Counted from the first letter of the stretch, positions 57,879 through 63,145 are shown. The stretch: DNA of 64,000 bases from an uncultured Candidatus Saccharibacteria bacterium (GCA_964513515.1 CAZEMP010000002.1:82232-146231), one strand, 5' to 3'. Numbers and translations: made by a program. Notes: a model not told the origin generated them from the sequence alone.

Positions 57879-58726
57879 CTTCTCTGGTCGTACATCGACC
57901 ATTCTTCACAGTTCTTGGTTCTTCAGAACCCTGCAAAGAACTCTCTTTATTTCTCGAGCGAACGCCCGAAAGAACTACTAGTCGTTCATGACCCCATCCT
58001 CCTTGTTTTGTACTACTACAACTACCTTAACCGAACTAGCATAGTCTCAACCCCTTCACCCCCTTGAAGTATTCAAGGGGGGTAGTCGAGTACTATCTAG
58101 TCGTGCATAGTGGTTTTACCCCCTTTGCTAAATTTATTACGACAATTCAATGATAACAGATAAGAAATATTTGTCAATAGGTTTTGACGTTATTTGACAT
58201 TTTATGTAAATTAATGTCAAAATACGCCAATTTATAAGGCTGTTTCCGTCTTTTCACCAAAAAACAGTGTTATTTGTGAAAAACATACTAAAATTAGTGT
58301 AAAATAACTTTAAAATATGTCAAATATATGAATTAAATGTTGATGCGTATCGACATAATTAATATTATATTATCCTTATATAAAGCCATATATTATGAAT
58401 CTATAAAAGAAAGTGTTGTTATCTCTTGACAAATAAATATAATCTGTTAAGCTATACATAGAAAACAAGTTTGATGTATTTCCTTCCAAGTGCCTCTCTC
58501 TAATATTTAATAAATAAGGCAGCAGCAGGCACTTGGAAGGGAATAGATCTAATAAATCACACAAAAGGGGGTGATGAATATGACGATATACATCGTCAAC
58601 GGACAAGTCTTCACCAGCCGACAGGCTGCGATTGAAGCCCAGAGGAAGTAAAATTCCCCTGGAAATTCTTCGGGTAAAACCGGAGTTACTAAAAAATCCA
58701 TTAGTGTAAAAGCACGGGTAAATGTG

Positions 58727-58826
58727 CTTTGTGTGTTAGGCCAGTCGAAAGACAAATCTGAACACTCTTTTACTGATCAAGGTAGAAGTCAACCTAGGTC
58801 ACGGGGGATTTTATATCTCCCTCTGT
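58727..58826 (+). repeat. Repeat module R of about 100 nt immediately 5-prime of HHR2 (left copy)
   Basis: CTTTGTGTGTTAGGCCAGTCGAAAGACAAATCTGAACACTCTTTTACTGATCAAGGTAGAAGTCAACCTAGGTCACGGGGGATTTTATATCTCCCTCTGT. About 93% identical to 62268-62366. Confidence 0.7.
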
Positions 58827-58883
58827 ATTCGACTAAGTCGGACTGATGAGTCTTCCATCTAATATATGGTAAGACGAAACAGA
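58822..58883 (+). ncRNA. Type-III hammerhead ribozyme (HHR2)
   Basis: tctgtA | TTCGACtaaGTCGGA CTGATGAG TCTTCC...GGTAAGAC GAA acaga. Stem II is extended. The cleavage triplet is GUA. Confidence 0.75.
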
Positions 58884-59409
58884 AAAGTTCCTTAAAATAA
58901 ATTCCCTGTTCCTTATGCGAATTTAAAATAATATTTGAATTTGAATAAGGCGCAGGGAGTGTGTGATCCCCAAAGCGCGTGAGGCTGGCAGACCAACTGC
59001 TAGGGAGTGGCTGACGGTAATACCCGTCACACCATAATCCTAAAAAAAGGATGGGTAACCCGTTCGCCGCCGGCTGAGTGTGTGCAGAGCGGTTTCTAGA
59101 ATCGCCCCCTGATCACACCACGCAAGTAAAAACCCCCAAATGGTTCCCGGAATGCATCCGGGTTGCGACAGCCACATGGGGAGCCAGGTTGGTATATTAG
59201 CTTGCCAACCAATCACACGGCCTTTAATGCCCGCCTGGAATGATGCGACAATCATTCCACCGGGAAGATCCCTTGAGATCTTCCCGTCTTTCTTCAGTCC
59301 GGTACGTAAGTAGTGGATTGAAATCAAGATTTTAGTTCTTTCAATTTAATCAACAGCCACCCAGCCATAAGACCTTACTCGAAAGAGAAGGCAGGCAAAG
59401 GAGAATCCC

Positions 59410-59622
59410 ATGACCACTCGTATTGACGATGTAGAAGCCGCCCATATAGAGGCGAACGAGGAAAATCACTTTTGGCATGTGATTTATCCCGACGCAGTAA
59501 ACGCGTTACGTCAGGATTATGCAATCGATTTCGCCCACGAAATGGCGATACTCGAAGATCCACAACGCGATCCACTCGAATGCCGTCGATGTGGTTGGGT
59601 GCATCCTACCGGATGCATCTAA
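59410..59622 (+). CDS. Hypothetical small protein (HHR-island ORF 1)
   Basis: 70 aa, about 52% GC, C-terminal CRRCGW..TGC. Followed by the hairpin GGGGTGCCTAACCCC. Confidence 0.4.
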   Translation: MTTRIDDVEAAHIEANEENHFWHVIYPDAVNALRQDYAIDFAHEMAILEDPQRDPLECRRCGWVHPTGCI

Positions 59623-59673
59623 GACCGATCGGCAACGGGGTGCCTAACCCCACGGGAGAACTAAAAATCTCCC

Positions 59674-59723
59674 TCTGTCTCGAGATGAAATCTCGACTGA
59701 TGAGCTCAAAAGAGCGAAACAGA
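59674..59723 (+). ncRNA. Type-III hammerhead ribozyme (HHR3)
   Basis: tctgtC | TCGAGAtgaaaTCTCGA CTGATGAG CTCaaaaGAG CGAA acaga. Confidence 0.85.
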
Positions 59724-59860
59724 AAATGTTTTTTAATAAAATCGGGGAAGCGCTTACCCTTAAATAAGCGCAAACCTCATTTCCAATATCCTATATAAGT
59801 TTGAGTGCACCTCAGATGAAATTAGGAAAACAGGAAATGTGGGTCAGTAGGAGGAAGCAA

Positions 59861-60172
59861 ATGGATGACACCAAATGCGCCTTCTGCGGCCAAGCGGGAA
59901 AGCACGGGGCACAGTGGATTATTCGCGTCTCAGGTATGGTGAGCAATCGCCAGATCTTTGACGGGAAGAAATTCCATCGTCCCTGTGCTGACTCCGTGAT
60001 CAAACAAGCGCCAGTTGGACTCAAGTCGAGTATCCAGCCGAGCGCCGAATTGATCTCGGAGTGGAAAGAGAAGGCTCGCTTGAAGCGCGTCCGAGAGTTT
60101 TGGGAAAAGAATACCCCAAAGCTTAAAGAACTGCGCGACAAGTTGCCGGCTCTTCCTGCTGCCGCAGCGTAA
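59861..60172 (+). CDS. Hypothetical Cys-containing small protein (HHR-island ORF 2)
   Basis: The probable start is MDDTKCAFCGQ, preceded by AGGAGG. The ORF track extends the frame to 59801. HRPC and CxxC pairs suggest a zinc ribbon. The C-terminus is basic and helical. Confidence 0.4.
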   Translation: MDDTKCAFCGQAGKHGAQWIIRVSGMVSNRQIFDGKKFHRPCADSVIKQAPVGLKSSIQPSAELISEWKEKARLKRVREFWEKNTPKLKELRDKLPALPAAAA

Positions 60173-60404
60173 CAACGAACGTAATCGTTGGCTCGAGATT
60201 GATAGCGTGGTCAACGCTAAAACTTTCTTTTGAAAGTGAACTCGAGATAATCTCTGCCCGGAGAATAAATGGGGACGCCTGGATTCGGGCGGATGGCAAA
60301 TTGACTGTTTGCTAAAGCTGACCACAGCAGAACAAAACCGTGTGAATTTTTAGTTGAATAAAACTATCGTTGCGAAAGCAAATGGAGAATACGTTAATTT
60401 CTCC

Positions 60405-61736: not shown

Positions 61737-61859
61737 CGGGCAAACAGGGTGCCTAACCCTGGTTAATTTCTTAAAACCGAATATCCTTTATAATCCAACA
61801 TCTAGAGTGTGTTGGTAAAAAGAGGAGAATAAGGTTTAAGGAATACAAGGAGGATTGCC

Positions 61860-62231
61860 ATGGACGAAGCACTTAAGTCGCTTCGTGAGTTGCGTGGCGC
61901 GTTTGCCGTCACCTCTGAAAAAGTTGAGGAGCTATTGAGGCTCTGTCAAAAATCAGGGGTGCCTTGTGTCACCGTCTATTCTCCAGCGAGATATGATGGA
62001 TGGTACGAGATGCAACGCGCCTACGTGTTCACTAAGCGCAAAGATGCCCATGAGCACATTTGGTACTTCTCTCCTAATCGCGGTCTATCAGTAATTGGCC
62101 GAGATGGAAAGAATGCGGTGCCATTTGAGCAGTGGGATCCGGAAGCTGATTTGTTCACTGATCAATCGCTTAACGAGGGGGGAACTAACATGAACCCCGT
62201 CGAACGCGAACGGCTCAGTAAGAACAGTTAG
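61860..62231 (+). CDS. Hypothetical protein (HHR-island ORF 5)
   Basis: 123 aa with RBS AAGGAGG. No recognisable domain. Confidence 0.4.
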   Translation: MDEALKSLRELRGAFAVTSEKVEELLRLCQKSGVPCVTVYSPARYDGWYEMQRAYVFTKRKDAHEHIWYFSPNRGLSVIGRDGKNAVPFEQWDPEADLFTDQSLNEGGTNMNPVERERLSKNS

Positions 62232-62267
62232 CATTCTGCGCTGTGAGCACCAGCTCTTTAGGATGCG

Positions 62268-62366
62268 CCTTGTGTGTTAGGCCTGTCGAAAGACAAATCT
62301 GAACACTCTTCACTGATCAAGGTAGAAGTTAACCTAGATCAAGGGGGATTTTATATCTCCCTCTGT
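62268..62366 (+). repeat. Repeat module R of about 100 nt immediately 5-prime of HHR6 (right copy)
   Basis: CCTTGTGTGTTAGGCCTGTCGAAAGACAAATCTGAACACTCTTCACTGATCAAGGTAGAAGTTAACCTAGATCAAGGGGGATTTTATATCTCCCTCTGT. Confidence 0.7.
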
Positions 62367-62411
62367 CTCGAGACGAAGTCTCGACTGATGAGCTCAAAAG
62401 AGCGAAACAGA
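62362..62411 (+). ncRNA. Type-III hammerhead ribozyme (HHR6)
   Basis: tctgtC | TCGAGAcgaagTCTCGA CTGATGAG CTCaaaaGAG CGAA acaga. Confidence 0.85.
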
Positions 62412-62454
62412 AAATATTATTTAAAACTATACAGTAATATAAAAGTTCTAATAA

Positions 62455-62485
62455 AATAAAACCCTCATTTATGAGGGTTTTATTT
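62455..62485. terminator. Bidirectional rho-independent terminator between the HHR island and the sigma-like gene
   Basis: AAAATAAAACCCTCATTTATGAGGGTTTTATTTTATTT. Confidence 0.65.
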
Positions 62486-62488
62486 TAT

Positions 62489-63145
62489 TTAATTATTACT
62501 ATGTTTTGGTTTTTTTATTTCAATTAAACCCATACGTTCAGCTGATCTACGCAATTTCATCATAGCCGCTTCCTCGATATGCCTAATTCTTTCTGTGGAA
62601 AGTTTCATAATACCGGCAATCTCCTGAAGAGTCATTGGTTCCTTATCAGAATCTATACCAAACCTCATTTTAATCACCGCTTGCTGTTGATCATTAAGTT
62701 TATTAATAGCTTGCCCCATTTCTTTCTTAAGAAATAATTTCTCAACATATGCAGCGGGGTTATCTTCTGTAGATGGTGCATCTGCATTTTTTTGTAGTTC
62801 TGTTGTAGAAGTAATATACCAATCAGGTTTCCCATCCGGACCCCAACGTTGTTCATTGTCTTCAAATAAATCTTCTGGTAAAAGACCAAAAAACTTTGCA
62901 AGTTCAACAGCATATTTGTTCCAACCACCATCTTCTGTATATACAGGAATTTTCATATTGATAAGTTGTCCAATTATAGCTTGACTTTGAGGTATACCCA
63001 TCTGTCTGCATAGTTCTGAGACCCTTTCTATTCCGGCCTTTCTCATTTGTTTAAGTATGTTTGGATTTTTACCAATTGATTTTGATTCAATATTTACTAT
63101 ATCATCTAAAATTACATCAGACGTATTATGTTCTATTCCTTTCAT
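62489..63145 (-). CDS. Sigma-70 family region 3/4-containing protein lacking recognisable region 2 (atypical sigma or anti-sigma-like)
   Basis: C-terminal QAVIKMRFGI...MTLQEIAGIMKLSTERIRHIEEAAMMKLRR is a typical region-4 HTH. The N-terminal 130 aa are not recognisable. Codon usage is native and AT-rich. Confidence 0.55.
   Translation of the reverse strand: MKGIEHNTSDVILDDIVNIESKSIGKNPNILKQMRKAGIERVSELCRQMGIPQSQAIIGQLINMKIPVYTEDGGWNKYAVELAKFFGLLPEDLFEDNEQRWGPDGKPDWYITSTTELQKNADAPSTEDNPAAYVEKLFLKKEMGQAINKLNDQQQAVIKMRFGIDSDKEPMTLQEIAGIMKLSTERIRHIEEAAMMKLRRSAERMGLIEIKKPKHSNN

Follow-up and report, generated by a model that had tools for sequence, protein, structure and literature searches.

Hammerhead ribozyme motifs punctuate an island of small genes, rich in guanine and cytosine (GC), within a 64,000-nucleotide (nt) stretch of DNA from an uncultured bacterium (GCA_964513515.1, CAZEMP010000002.1:82232-146231; this whole stretch is called the window below, and positions are counted from its first letter). 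We consider it probable that the island, at 58.42-62.49 kb, is one co-directional unit organized as a cassette array, whose transcript cleaves itself at five sites during its synthesis, such that the resulting units are uncoupled from one another and the cassettes that specify them can be exchanged. This reading is carried by five type III hammerheads whose stems vary in a compensatory manner, by the layout of the island, and by related arrays in which cassette borders fall at or near the ribozymes.

The ribozymes were located by a pattern search of our own, made independently of the positions given in a first-pass annotation of the same DNA, and were scored with the Rfam model Hammerhead_3 (RF00008) and with R1, a covariance model built from the window copies and 83 distinct phage hammerheads. 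The copies (HHR, hammerhead ribozyme), five in the island and one outside it, are the following.

58822-58883, plus strand: HHR1, type III, with an extended stem II; predicted cut after 58827 (GUA); RF00008 32.6 bits, E = 3e-4; R1 36 bits.
59674-59723, plus strand: HHR2; predicted cut after 59679 (GUC); found by pattern search and R1; RF00008 44.4 bits, E = 1.5e-7.
60405-60454, plus strand: HHR3; predicted cut after 60410 (GUA); found by pattern search and R1; RF00008 37.0 bits, E = 1.9e-5.
61212-61262, plus strand: HHR4, stem II GUCC/GGAC; predicted cut after 61217 (GUC); found by pattern search; RF00008 24.9 bits; R1 69.3 bits.
62362-62411, plus strand: HHR5; predicted cut after 62367 (GUC); found by pattern search and R1; RF00008 42.2 bits, E = 6.4e-7.
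36568-36616, plus strand: sixth hammerhead, with a CUGACGA core; predicted cut after 36573; found by pattern search; R1 62.3 bits; RF00008 40.5 bits, E = 2.6e-6.

The first-pass annotation had proposed five type III hammerheads on the plus strand; all five are complete in the independent search, which places the five cuts at the same bases that the annotation had predicted. The catalytic core is present in all six copies (CUGAUGA, or CUGACGA in the 36.5-kb copy; GAA; A15.1-U16.1; C or A at H17). The G10.1-C11.1 pair is likewise intact, as is the first pair of stem I, and no mispair lies beside the core. The topology is that of type III, with a closed stem I of 6-7 base pairs (bp), a closed stem II of 4-5 or more bp, and an open stem III of 4-6 bp. 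Among the five island copies, stem II is GCUC-AAAA-GAGC in three, GUCC-AAAA-GGAC in one, and extended in one. Loop types are conserved, loop I being UGUGU or UGAAA-like and loop II AAAA. Stem III is the same in all window copies (UCUGU/ACAGA), and its strands are interchangeable.

The stem variants quoted in the first-pass annotation (UCGAGAU/AUCUCGA, UCGGAAU/AUUCCGA and UCUCGAU/AUCGAGA; GCUC/GAGC compared with GUCC/GGAC) were read correctly, and its argument that the motifs are maintained for folding rather than being chance matches is borne out by compensatory changes on a larger scale. In an alignment of 89 distinct sequences, 98% of the cells are paired, changes occur on both sides in 11 of 16 pairs, and the covariation score is 0.72, compared with 0.20 for shuffled and 0.06-0.12 for slid alignments. 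When R1 was run over the whole window, on both strands and with filters off, it returned six matches of 36-69 bits, with the next best at 15.6 bits; the scores of the window copies are partly circular because those copies are in the training set, while the lack of other matches is unaffected by this. These data support the assignment of the motifs as bona fide type III hammerheads, which would be expected to self-cleave and to leave 5′-OH and 2′,3′-cyclic phosphate ends.

It is conceivable that the motifs are DNA-level repeats, such as recombination sites or elements resembling repetitive extragenic palindromes, that merely look like hammerheads. The copies do coincide with recombination junctions (see below), and their scores lie under the Rfam gathering threshold. 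We judge this explanation very improbable given that stems I and II covary freely around catalytic core nucleotides that do not vary, that every copy sits on the sense strand relative to the genes beside it, and that an unrelated ribozyme class, twister, is found at equivalent junctions.

The island (58.42-62.49 kb) is flanked by a TrmB-family gene on one side and by a convergent sigma-factor gene on the other, and all its open reading frames (ORFs) and ribozymes share the plus strand. This common orientation, a promoter-like head and one strong terminator at the tail argue for a single transcription unit, which would be served by a single promoter.

57085-57831, plus strand: TrmB-family winged-helix regulator, 248 amino acids (aa), with a host-like GC of 30%; Pfam TrmB, E = 9e-15.
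58416-58458, plus strand: promoter-like region, sigma-70-like (TTGTTA-16-TATAAT), with an overlapping TTGACA at 58426; consensus scan.
58470-58552, plus strand: long 5′ hairpin at the predicted transcript start; inverted repeat with 26-nt arms, 88% complementary.
58574-58651, plus strand: mini-ORF of 25 aa, MNMTIYIVNGQVFTSRQAAIEAQRK, with a ribosome-binding site (RBS), first cassette; read from the sequence.
59410-59622, plus strand: ORF1, 70 aa, with a C-terminal CxxC; no family match.
59861-60172, plus strand: ORF2, 103 aa, zinc-ribbon-like (CxxC...HRPC).
60895-61116, plus strand: ORF3, 73 aa.
61416-61736, plus strand: ORF4, 106 aa; no family match.
61860-62231, plus strand: ORF5, 123 aa, a conserved orphan protein.
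62450-62489, both strands: bidirectional intrinsic terminator shared with the sigma-factor gene; inverted repeat with 19-nt arms, 100% complementary.
62489-63145, minus strand: sigma-factor gene, convergent to the array.

The five small ORFs each have a GGAG-type RBS, in agreement with the strong sites first reported for them. The GC-rich island of about 4 kb that had been noticed in a genome of about one-third GC is also evident, at 46.4% GC for 58553-62420 compared with 34.2% for the window overall. Where the first-pass annotation erred is in placing a hammerhead in each intercistronic gap: that between ORF4 and ORF5 (61737-61859) has none. Also, HHR1 comes after the mini-ORF and not after any of the five ORFs, and HHR5 stands after the last ORF and before the terminator. 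The five ribozymes lie within 3.6 kb, are co-directional with the genes, and bound units of 681-1099 nt.

In the mechanism that we propose, transcription would start at one promoter near 58.42-58.46 kb, possibly under the control of the adjacent TrmB-family protein, and end at one terminator at 62.45 kb. Each cassette would end in a module composed of a stable hairpin, a type III hammerhead and a short leader, (A)AGUUCYUU. Hammerhead cleavage of the nascent transcript after 58827, 59679, 60410, 61217 and 62367 would give six pieces, namely the mini-ORF RNA, a 526-nt RNA with ORF1, ORF2, a leader with ORF3, an ORF4-ORF5 bicistron, and the terminator tail. Each upstream product would have a 3′ end formed by the hairpin followed by UCUGUH with a 2′,3′-cyclic phosphate, and each downstream product would begin with a 5′-OH and the folded stems I and II of the compact ribozyme. 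The host encodes PNPase and RNase Y, and end chemistry could therefore matter for RNA stability; the released units may be protected at their ends. The stability and translation of each unit would be independent of its neighbors, a cassette lacking both promoter and terminator could be inserted anywhere in the array, and the repeated modules would supply the homology for cassette exchange.

Comparison loci, designated by L numbers, were used to place the island in context. A metagenome scan with the stem II and III sequence of the window returned 27 loci, many from groundwater 0.1-μm fractions, in which R1 finds 59 hammerheads in arrays of 2-5; the housekeeping genes of the related loci are 50-73% identical to those of the window. 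An exact-pattern scan of IMG/VR for the hammerhead design gave 104 loci (the phage contigs L001-L104), from which 117 distinct sites were analyzed.

The module beside each ribozyme includes further RNA structure. Stem III is abutted by a hairpin in five of the six window copies; at the sixth hammerhead, a GGGGAU...AUCCCC hairpin lies on the 5′ side and AAGTTCTTTGAC on the 3′ side. The elements that adjoin the island ribozymes are these.

58722-58802, plus strand: structured element of the 3′ untranslated region (UTR), copy 1, with GUGUU/AACAC helices, a GNRA hairpin and GAUCAAGG/CCUAGGUC.
58803-58821, plus strand: hairpin abutting stem III of HHR1, GGGGGAU...AUCUCCC, -9.2 kcal/mol.
59654-59673, plus strand: hairpin abutting HHR2, GGGAGA...UCUCCC, -8.6 kcal/mol.
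60384-60404, plus strand: hairpin abutting HHR3, GGAGA...UCUCC.
62263-62361, plus strand: 3′-UTR element copy 2 (62263-62342) and its abutting hairpin; direct repeat of copy 1.

A strong hairpin also occupies the upstream 30 nt at 78% of the 117 phage hammerheads, compared with 5% of control 30-mers from the same loci. The phage module fills the gap between co-directional genes, with medians of 29 nt from stop codon to ribozyme and 23 nt from ribozyme to ATG. Many of the hammerheads in the phage contigs are preceded by a hairpin of near-invariant sequence, GUGUCUUCAAAGACAC, which suggests a sequence-specific partner rather than mere stability.

The two copies of the 3′-UTR element, which precede HHR1 and HHR5, form a direct repeat of 93-94% identity with a spacing of 3540 nt. 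This element of about 100 nt recurs in L125 (486-559) and L151 (46-125 and 624-700) with compensatory changes in three helices; it has no Rfam match, and an exact-pattern search of JGI metagenomes returned none. The 3540-nt repeat and the 3571-bp contig L108, which carries an ORF5 homologue, raised the idea of a free 3.5-kb circular element. We rejected it because L108 has 61-68% GC, shares only ORF5 and lacks a hammerhead, and because the repeat is simply a shared module of 3′-UTR element, hairpin and hammerhead.

Differences in cassette content are apparent when related arrays are aligned. In L135, L146 and L152 the sequence is nearly the same over more than 110 nt upstream of a hammerhead and through it to GAAACAGAAA(A)GTTCTTT, beyond which three unrelated cassettes follow. 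Conversely, L135 and L146 share a receiver-like cassette in near-identical form, starting about 15 nt past the hammerhead, with unrelated upstream flanks, and cassette order differs between L135 and L152. The ribozyme body goes with the upstream cassette, and the junctions lie 3′ of the complete ribozyme, which is consistent with recombination of DNA at the repeated module or inside it, and speaks against RNA cleavage followed by ligation. Recombination between repeated modules is the likeliest cause of the shuffled cassettes.

Within two of these arrays, a twister-P1 ribozyme takes the place of a hammerhead, at 4427-4485 of L135 (plus strand; 63.5 bits, E = 2e-12) and at 1714-1785 of L152 (plus strand; E = 1e-8), in both cases scoring just under the Rfam gathering score; the Rfam search finds no twister in the window itself. 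Immediately after the L135 twister comes AAGTTCTTTCAAAATAAAT, a leader that it shares with the hammerheads (AAGTTCTTT). The presence of twister at junctions equivalent to hammerhead junctions implies that selection acts on cleavage and not on the hammerhead fold. The leader motif, (A)AGTTCTTT or (A)AGUUCYUU, is a feature of this clade and not of the phage hammerheads. Of 47 distinct clade hammerheads, 25 have GTTC[CT]TT no more than 18 nt from the core; none of 102 phage hammerheads does, and 0.4% would be expected from background. A search of IMG/VR for a hammerhead 3′ end joined to GTTCTTT gave 120 pattern matches; since a hammerhead core is upstream of none of them, all are attributed to chance. 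Two possible roles for the motif were considered by eye: GTTCTTTGAA was rejected as a -35 box since the downstream flanks have no -10 element at a fixed spacing, and complementarity of the motif to stem II is only weak and inconsistent.

Not all of the cargo is protein-coding. Two long "gaps" of 440-526 nt in the island are, as judged from predicted folding, strongly structured RNA.

58884-59409, plus strand: 526-nt structured RNA, member of a conserved family; starts AAAGUUCCUUAAAAUAAA and has a long hairpin, UCCCUGUUCC...GGCGCAGGGA.
60455-60894, plus strand: 440-nt structured leader before ORF3; minimum free energy (MFE) z = -5.87.

For the 526-nt RNA, the MFE z score is -8.84 in the sense orientation and -4.60 in the antisense orientation. 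Other members of its family lie at 1756-2377 of L132, 499-1010 of L134 (L134/L147), 2397-3103 and 4483-4788 of L135, and 2419-2956 of L152. They measure about 300-700 nt, begin right after a ribozyme and have a common AAGUUCUUUAAAUAAA start. The long hairpin, UCYCUGCACC...GGUGCAGGGAG, has 22 pairs in the homologous 5′ domain, 13 of them with compensatory changes, and further conserved blocks are CCCCAAAGCACGUGAG, UCUAGAAU...CUGAUCAC and CAGGUUGGUAU. One L135 member is an ORF-less unit of 707 nt between two hammerheads, and the other lies between the twister and a hammerhead. A covariance model of the family, R2, gives the window member 117 bits and finds no additional members in 1.2 Mb of locus sequence; the family has no Rfam match, and its core pattern is absent from IMG/VR. 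No homologue was found for the 440-nt leader, and the other ORF-less units and long leaders have little sequence similarity to one another. Within this leader, a solo copy of the repeat family, AAAGTTCCTTAAAAT, lies at about 60540. At 60528-60558, 75 nt downstream of HHR3, is a solo copy of GAGACAATAAAGTTCCTTAAAAT, which resembles a hammerhead 3′ end joined to the leader motif and may be what is left of a module since lost.

Such ORF-less, ribozyme-flanked units, 300-707 nt long in the related arrays, could instead be imagined as RNA circles or retro-mobile cassettes, wherein released units are circularized by the reverse reaction of the hammerhead or by an RtcB-type ligase and serve as stable circular mRNAs or non-coding RNAs (ncRNAs), or as retrozyme-like intermediates that move cassettes. 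The very strong structure of the RNA cargo, the identical stem III with its interchangeable strands, the direct repeat that closes with a hammerhead and stands at either end of the island with a spacing of 3540 nt, and the precedent of retrozymes (PMC4918200) would all fit this idea. We nonetheless hold it to be improbable. A cut-and-ligate intermediate predicts junctions at the cleavage site, which is the opposite of the junctions 3′ of the whole ribozyme that are observed; no reverse transcriptase was seen in any locus; and a search by Perreault et al. (2011; PMC3088659) for circular or spliced products of bacterial clusters was negative.

The heads of the arrays are constant and their contents highly variable. 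A TrmB-family gene stands at the head of all nine arrays for which at least 2 kb of upstream sequence is available, counting both window islands. In the main island and in L135, L136, L144 and L147 it is co-directional with the array, and in the second window island (described below), L126, L128 and L148 it is divergent. The co-directional genes of the four loci lie directly upstream of their arrays and are orthologues of the window gene (49-58% identity), and those of L126, L128 and L148 are more distant relatives. A strong promoter-like motif, TTGACA-N16/17-TATACT/TATAAT, occurs between the TrmB gene and the first ribozyme in L135, L136, L144 and L147. From this arrangement, we suggest that TrmB may control the arrays. 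Between 58150 and 58450 the window is AT-rich and has several inverted repeats containing TTGACA/TGTCAA, among them one with 27-nt arms (58154-58180 and 58423-58449); these could be operators for the adjacent TrmB.

Other features of the head region were observed as well. At about 57990-58020, on the minus strand between TrmB and the array promoter, a strong Shine-Dalgarno sequence precedes a mini-ORF of 3-4 codons. This opposite-strand mini-ORF is conserved in four genomes (the window, L135, L136 and L147), reading M-N-D, M-H-D-S, M-S-D and M-G-D before a stop, and its surroundings are GC-richer. A tRNA gene lies directly beside the array-head TrmB gene in L135 (703-773), L147 (4545-4615) and L148 (99-169); in the window, one kinase-like gene separates the tRNA at 55706-55778 from TrmB.

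The related arrays have 44-52% GC in hosts of 33-38% GC, and of their 75 non-redundant ORFs, 40 are singletons. Recognizable cassette families are few and comprise STIV_B116-like proteins (twice), a MoxR-type AAA ATPase, an XRE helix-turn-helix protein, receiver-like proteins and a weak Csx3 match. The five island ORFs gave nothing significant against Pfam and PHROGs. For ORF5, an AlphaFold model with a pLDDT (predicted local distance difference test) of 91.7 has no Foldseek neighbor in PDB or BFVD. The description of the gene set as unrecognizable holds only in part: ORF2, ORF3 and ORF5 have homologues in other metagenomes. Homologues of ORF2 with 34-41% identity are found within hammerhead arrays of L129, L132 and L135, and the family has 25 cluster representatives among 1.84e9 proteins. 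A homologue 65% identical to ORF3 adjoins an ORF5 homologue in L110-L112. The ORF5 family forms eight clusters (50-100% identity), including one from a Candidatus Kerfeldbacteria metagenome-assembled genome (MAG); there are none in IMG/VR, and among GTDB representative genomes only one Kerfeldbacteria MAG, without ribozymes, has it. Hammerheads are lacking at the ORF5 homologues elsewhere too; the closest of these, L125 (79% identity), shares the 5′-UTR hairpin and the 3′-UTR element, with compensatory changes, and ends just before the expected hammerhead position. Peptides resembling the window mini-ORF occur in three related loci, including L135 (MYQINGLVVSEKEYVEYRK...) and L147 (MVILADGTVVSYAEWLTIRGN).

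The window proteins include PNPase, RNase Y, a CCA-adding enzyme, UvrD, a Mur ligase, RecJ, RuvX and PilM; these bacterial housekeeping genes indicate a bacterial chromosome and not a phage. The TrmB protein next to the island is 75% identical to a Candidatus Taylorbacteria protein, and its further named relatives are from Paceibacterota and the "Patescibacteria group". Sequence relationships therefore support a host from the candidate phyla radiation (CPR), or Patescibacteria, that is Taylorbacteria-like, in accord with the CPR-like host first proposed. Patescibacteria are tiny-celled bacteria.

An origin from phages also deserves attention, in the form of a decaying phage-derived block: a remnant early or "moron" operon with hammerheads of its own, which may still cut, and with no host function, whose adjacency to TrmB would reflect an insertion hot-spot, for instance near tRNA genes. 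The same ribozyme design (stem I of 6-7 bp, GNNC-AAAA-GNNC stem II and an upstream hairpin) is common in IMG/VR phage contigs, and cassette proteins of the related arrays match viral families (STIV_B116-like proteins, PHROG ATPases and repressors). The GC of the island looks foreign, tRNA genes adjoin TrmB in L135, L147 and L148, and HHR5 has a core mutation in one assembly. Even so, we regard this origin as unlikely. None of the 29 window proteins scanned, a set that is not exhaustive, matches integrase or phage-structural Pfam families, and a BLASTN search with the island returned no DNA match among 50,697 phage records. ORF5 relatives are absent from IMG/VR, and neither the hammerhead-plus-GTTCTTT module nor the structured-RNA family is present in the viral contigs searched. 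Furthermore, the six cores are intact, and arrays with the same head gene and promoter recur in several genomes.

Several observations count against the cassette-array reading, which derives from sequence analysis. At the gathering threshold, an Rfam search of the window reports eight tRNAs only. The RF00008 search proposed in the first-pass annotation gave significant E values, obtained in E-value mode, for all five island copies (24.9-44.4 bits; E = 1.5e-7 to 0.05), and yet none exceeds the gathering score of 48.5 bits, formally one of the outcomes that the annotation had listed as refuting. The short stem II with its AAAA loop amounts to a four-column deletion relative to the model and so reduces the scores, and HHR4 scores lowest because its stem I is misaligned. 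The gathering score is an operational cut-off and not a property of ribozymes; in L135 and L126, close relatives exceed it, with 48.9 and 49.4 bits.

Other points of this kind concern the genes and the transcript. Hammerheads are absent beside homologous cassettes elsewhere (ORF5/ORF3 in L110, L113 and L114; the receiver-like gene in L115 and L121), and cleavage is therefore not needed to express those genes. Terminator-like hairpins lie within the unit at 59261-59286 and 61745-61761 and, together with the long leaders, could divide it into several transcripts. The TrmB family is large in Patescibacteria (460 clusters), and TrmB is a very common gene in these bacteria whether or not an array may lie beside it. 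For the 707-nt RNA unit, homology between L135 and L152 begins 65-104 nt past the ribozyme, so that cassette borders are at or near the module and not always at its edge. Finally, L105 (assembly ERZ27284378) has CGTAAC in place of CGAAAC at 570-580 (window 62400-62410), an A13U change in the core of HHR5 that should inactivate the ribozyme and may be a natural variant or a sequencing error. The passage from HHR5 into the sigma-factor gene is covered by two independent assemblies (L105/L106 and L107), with HHR5 present in L105 and L107, and an assembly artefact at this place is thereby excluded.

The sixth hammerhead belongs to a second GC-rich islet (36271-37277, extending to 37400), where it lies between two genes that are divergent from a second TrmB-family gene.

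35248-35976, minus strand: second TrmB-family gene, divergent from the second islet; Pfam TrmB, E = 3.5e-14.
36271-36528, plus strand: 85-aa ORF.
36660-37277, plus strand: receiver-domain-like protein, 205 aa, 50% GC; weak Response_reg match.

The 205-aa receiver-like family comprises 43 clusters, found in Kaiserbacteria, Magasanikbacteria and others. Its gene has 54-55% GC in L115, L118, L120 and L121, where locus GC is 38-49%, and only 39% GC in the more distant L122 (44% identity); such a near-constant GC is unusual for a chromosomal gene. It adjoins a TrmB gene in L115 and L121, where no hammerhead is present. Two other GC-rich patches in the window, at 38151-38756 and 33200-33700, are both without a ribozyme; one is a 201-aa ORF without a Pfam match, and the other is about 500 nt without a long ORF.

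The basic arrangement has been known since 2011 from prophage clusters, and the mechanism outlined in the first-pass annotation is an established hypothesis. New relative to that annotation are a sixth copy, the link to TrmB, structured RNA as cargo and the shuffling of cassettes. The locus is distinguished by its CPR host, its constant TrmB head, its GC-rich shuffling cassettes with hammerhead or twister borders, its leader motif and its ribozyme-released RNA family. A wider proposal, which we advance only tentatively and hold to be possible rather than probable, is that these arrays are an undescribed gene-cassette system of Patescibacteria, comprising a TrmB gene with a strong promoter and a GC-rich, fast-shuffling array with ribozyme-plus-AAGUUCUUU delimiters, and that the RNAs of 500-700 nt are a new class of functional ncRNA. 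The ribozyme module would then have a dual role, producing autonomous, end-protected cassettes at the RNA level and serving as a portable exchange junction at the DNA level.

A type III array in a CPR-like host was first put forward as new. The novelty of the host holds insofar as a literature text search turned up no report that connects hammerheads with the genomes of CPR or Patescibacteria; that of the concept does not, since cluster processing was already proposed in PMC3088659. In the literature on hammerhead and twister neighborhoods considered here, in which Roth 2014 and Weinberg 2015 are represented by a later summary (PMC6765202), TrmB linkage and cassette shuffling are not mentioned. 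Natural hammerhead arrays are thus extended to the candidate phyla radiation, where RNA biology is almost unexplored. The clade also offers a compact comparative system for the purpose of bacterial hammerhead and twister ribozymes, a question open since 2011-2014 (PMC6765202). Testable claims concerning end protection, plug-in cassettes, TrmB control and ncRNA release are gained as well.

Several known systems resemble these arrays in part. Integrons have a head composed of IntI and attI, a single promoter, and variable promoter-less cassettes separated by structure-forming attC sites. The arrays share with them a conserved head (a gene and a single promoter), variable co-directional cassettes and a repeated structure-forming separator. 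However, they are not integrons: there is no IntI, attI or attC, the window head is a TrmB-family winged-helix gene, the separators are sense-strand ribozymes, and there is no evidence here for site-specific recombination. The PeSL elements of T4-type phages, reportedly described by Arbiol et al. in 2010 as "mobile regulatory cassettes", are said to consist of a promoter and a stem-loop and to lie between small accessory genes. They are alike in using short repeated regulatory modules as portable homology for modular shuffling, although ribozymes take the place of promoter and stem-loop here, and PeSLs reside in phage genomes. RiboJ-type insulators are engineered combinations of a hammerhead and a hairpin that standardize the downstream 5′ end whatever lies upstream. 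By analogy only, the window module may be compared with them as a ribozyme with an adjacent hairpin; unlike the natural module they are engineered, and the window hairpin is upstream of the cut.

Retrozymes and viroid-like circular RNAs (PMC4918200) likewise have non-coding units that lie between directly oriented hammerheads and whose ends are suited to ligation. Here, however, the unit boundaries lie away from the cleavage site, no reverse transcriptase was seen, and most units are protein-coding. The closest parallel is with the hammerhead clusters of prophages (Perreault et al. 2011, PLoS Comput Biol, PMC3088659), a context named in the first-pass annotation. In those clusters, as in the window, several co-directional hammerheads flank single genes or brief runs of genes of variable identity, processing of long transcripts was proposed, and cleavage in vitro was demonstrated for three tandem clusters; because the same processing was inferred there, the concept is not new. 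The window locus differs in being chromosomal, in Patescibacteria, with no integrase or phage-structural family found among the window proteins scanned, and in having six ribozymes that are all type III and of one design. It also differs in that a TrmB-family gene and a conserved promoter head every assessable array, that a clade-specific leader follows the ribozyme, and that some units carry large structured RNAs instead of genes. A 2019 review (PMC6765202) gives the purpose of these ribozymes as still unknown and notes that gene neighborhoods are common to twister and hammerhead ribozymes (Roth 2014; Weinberg 2015). The same interchangeability of ribozyme classes, a trait of the prophage clusters too, appears in the related arrays of L135 and L152, where twister-P1 and hammerhead ribozymes replace one another.

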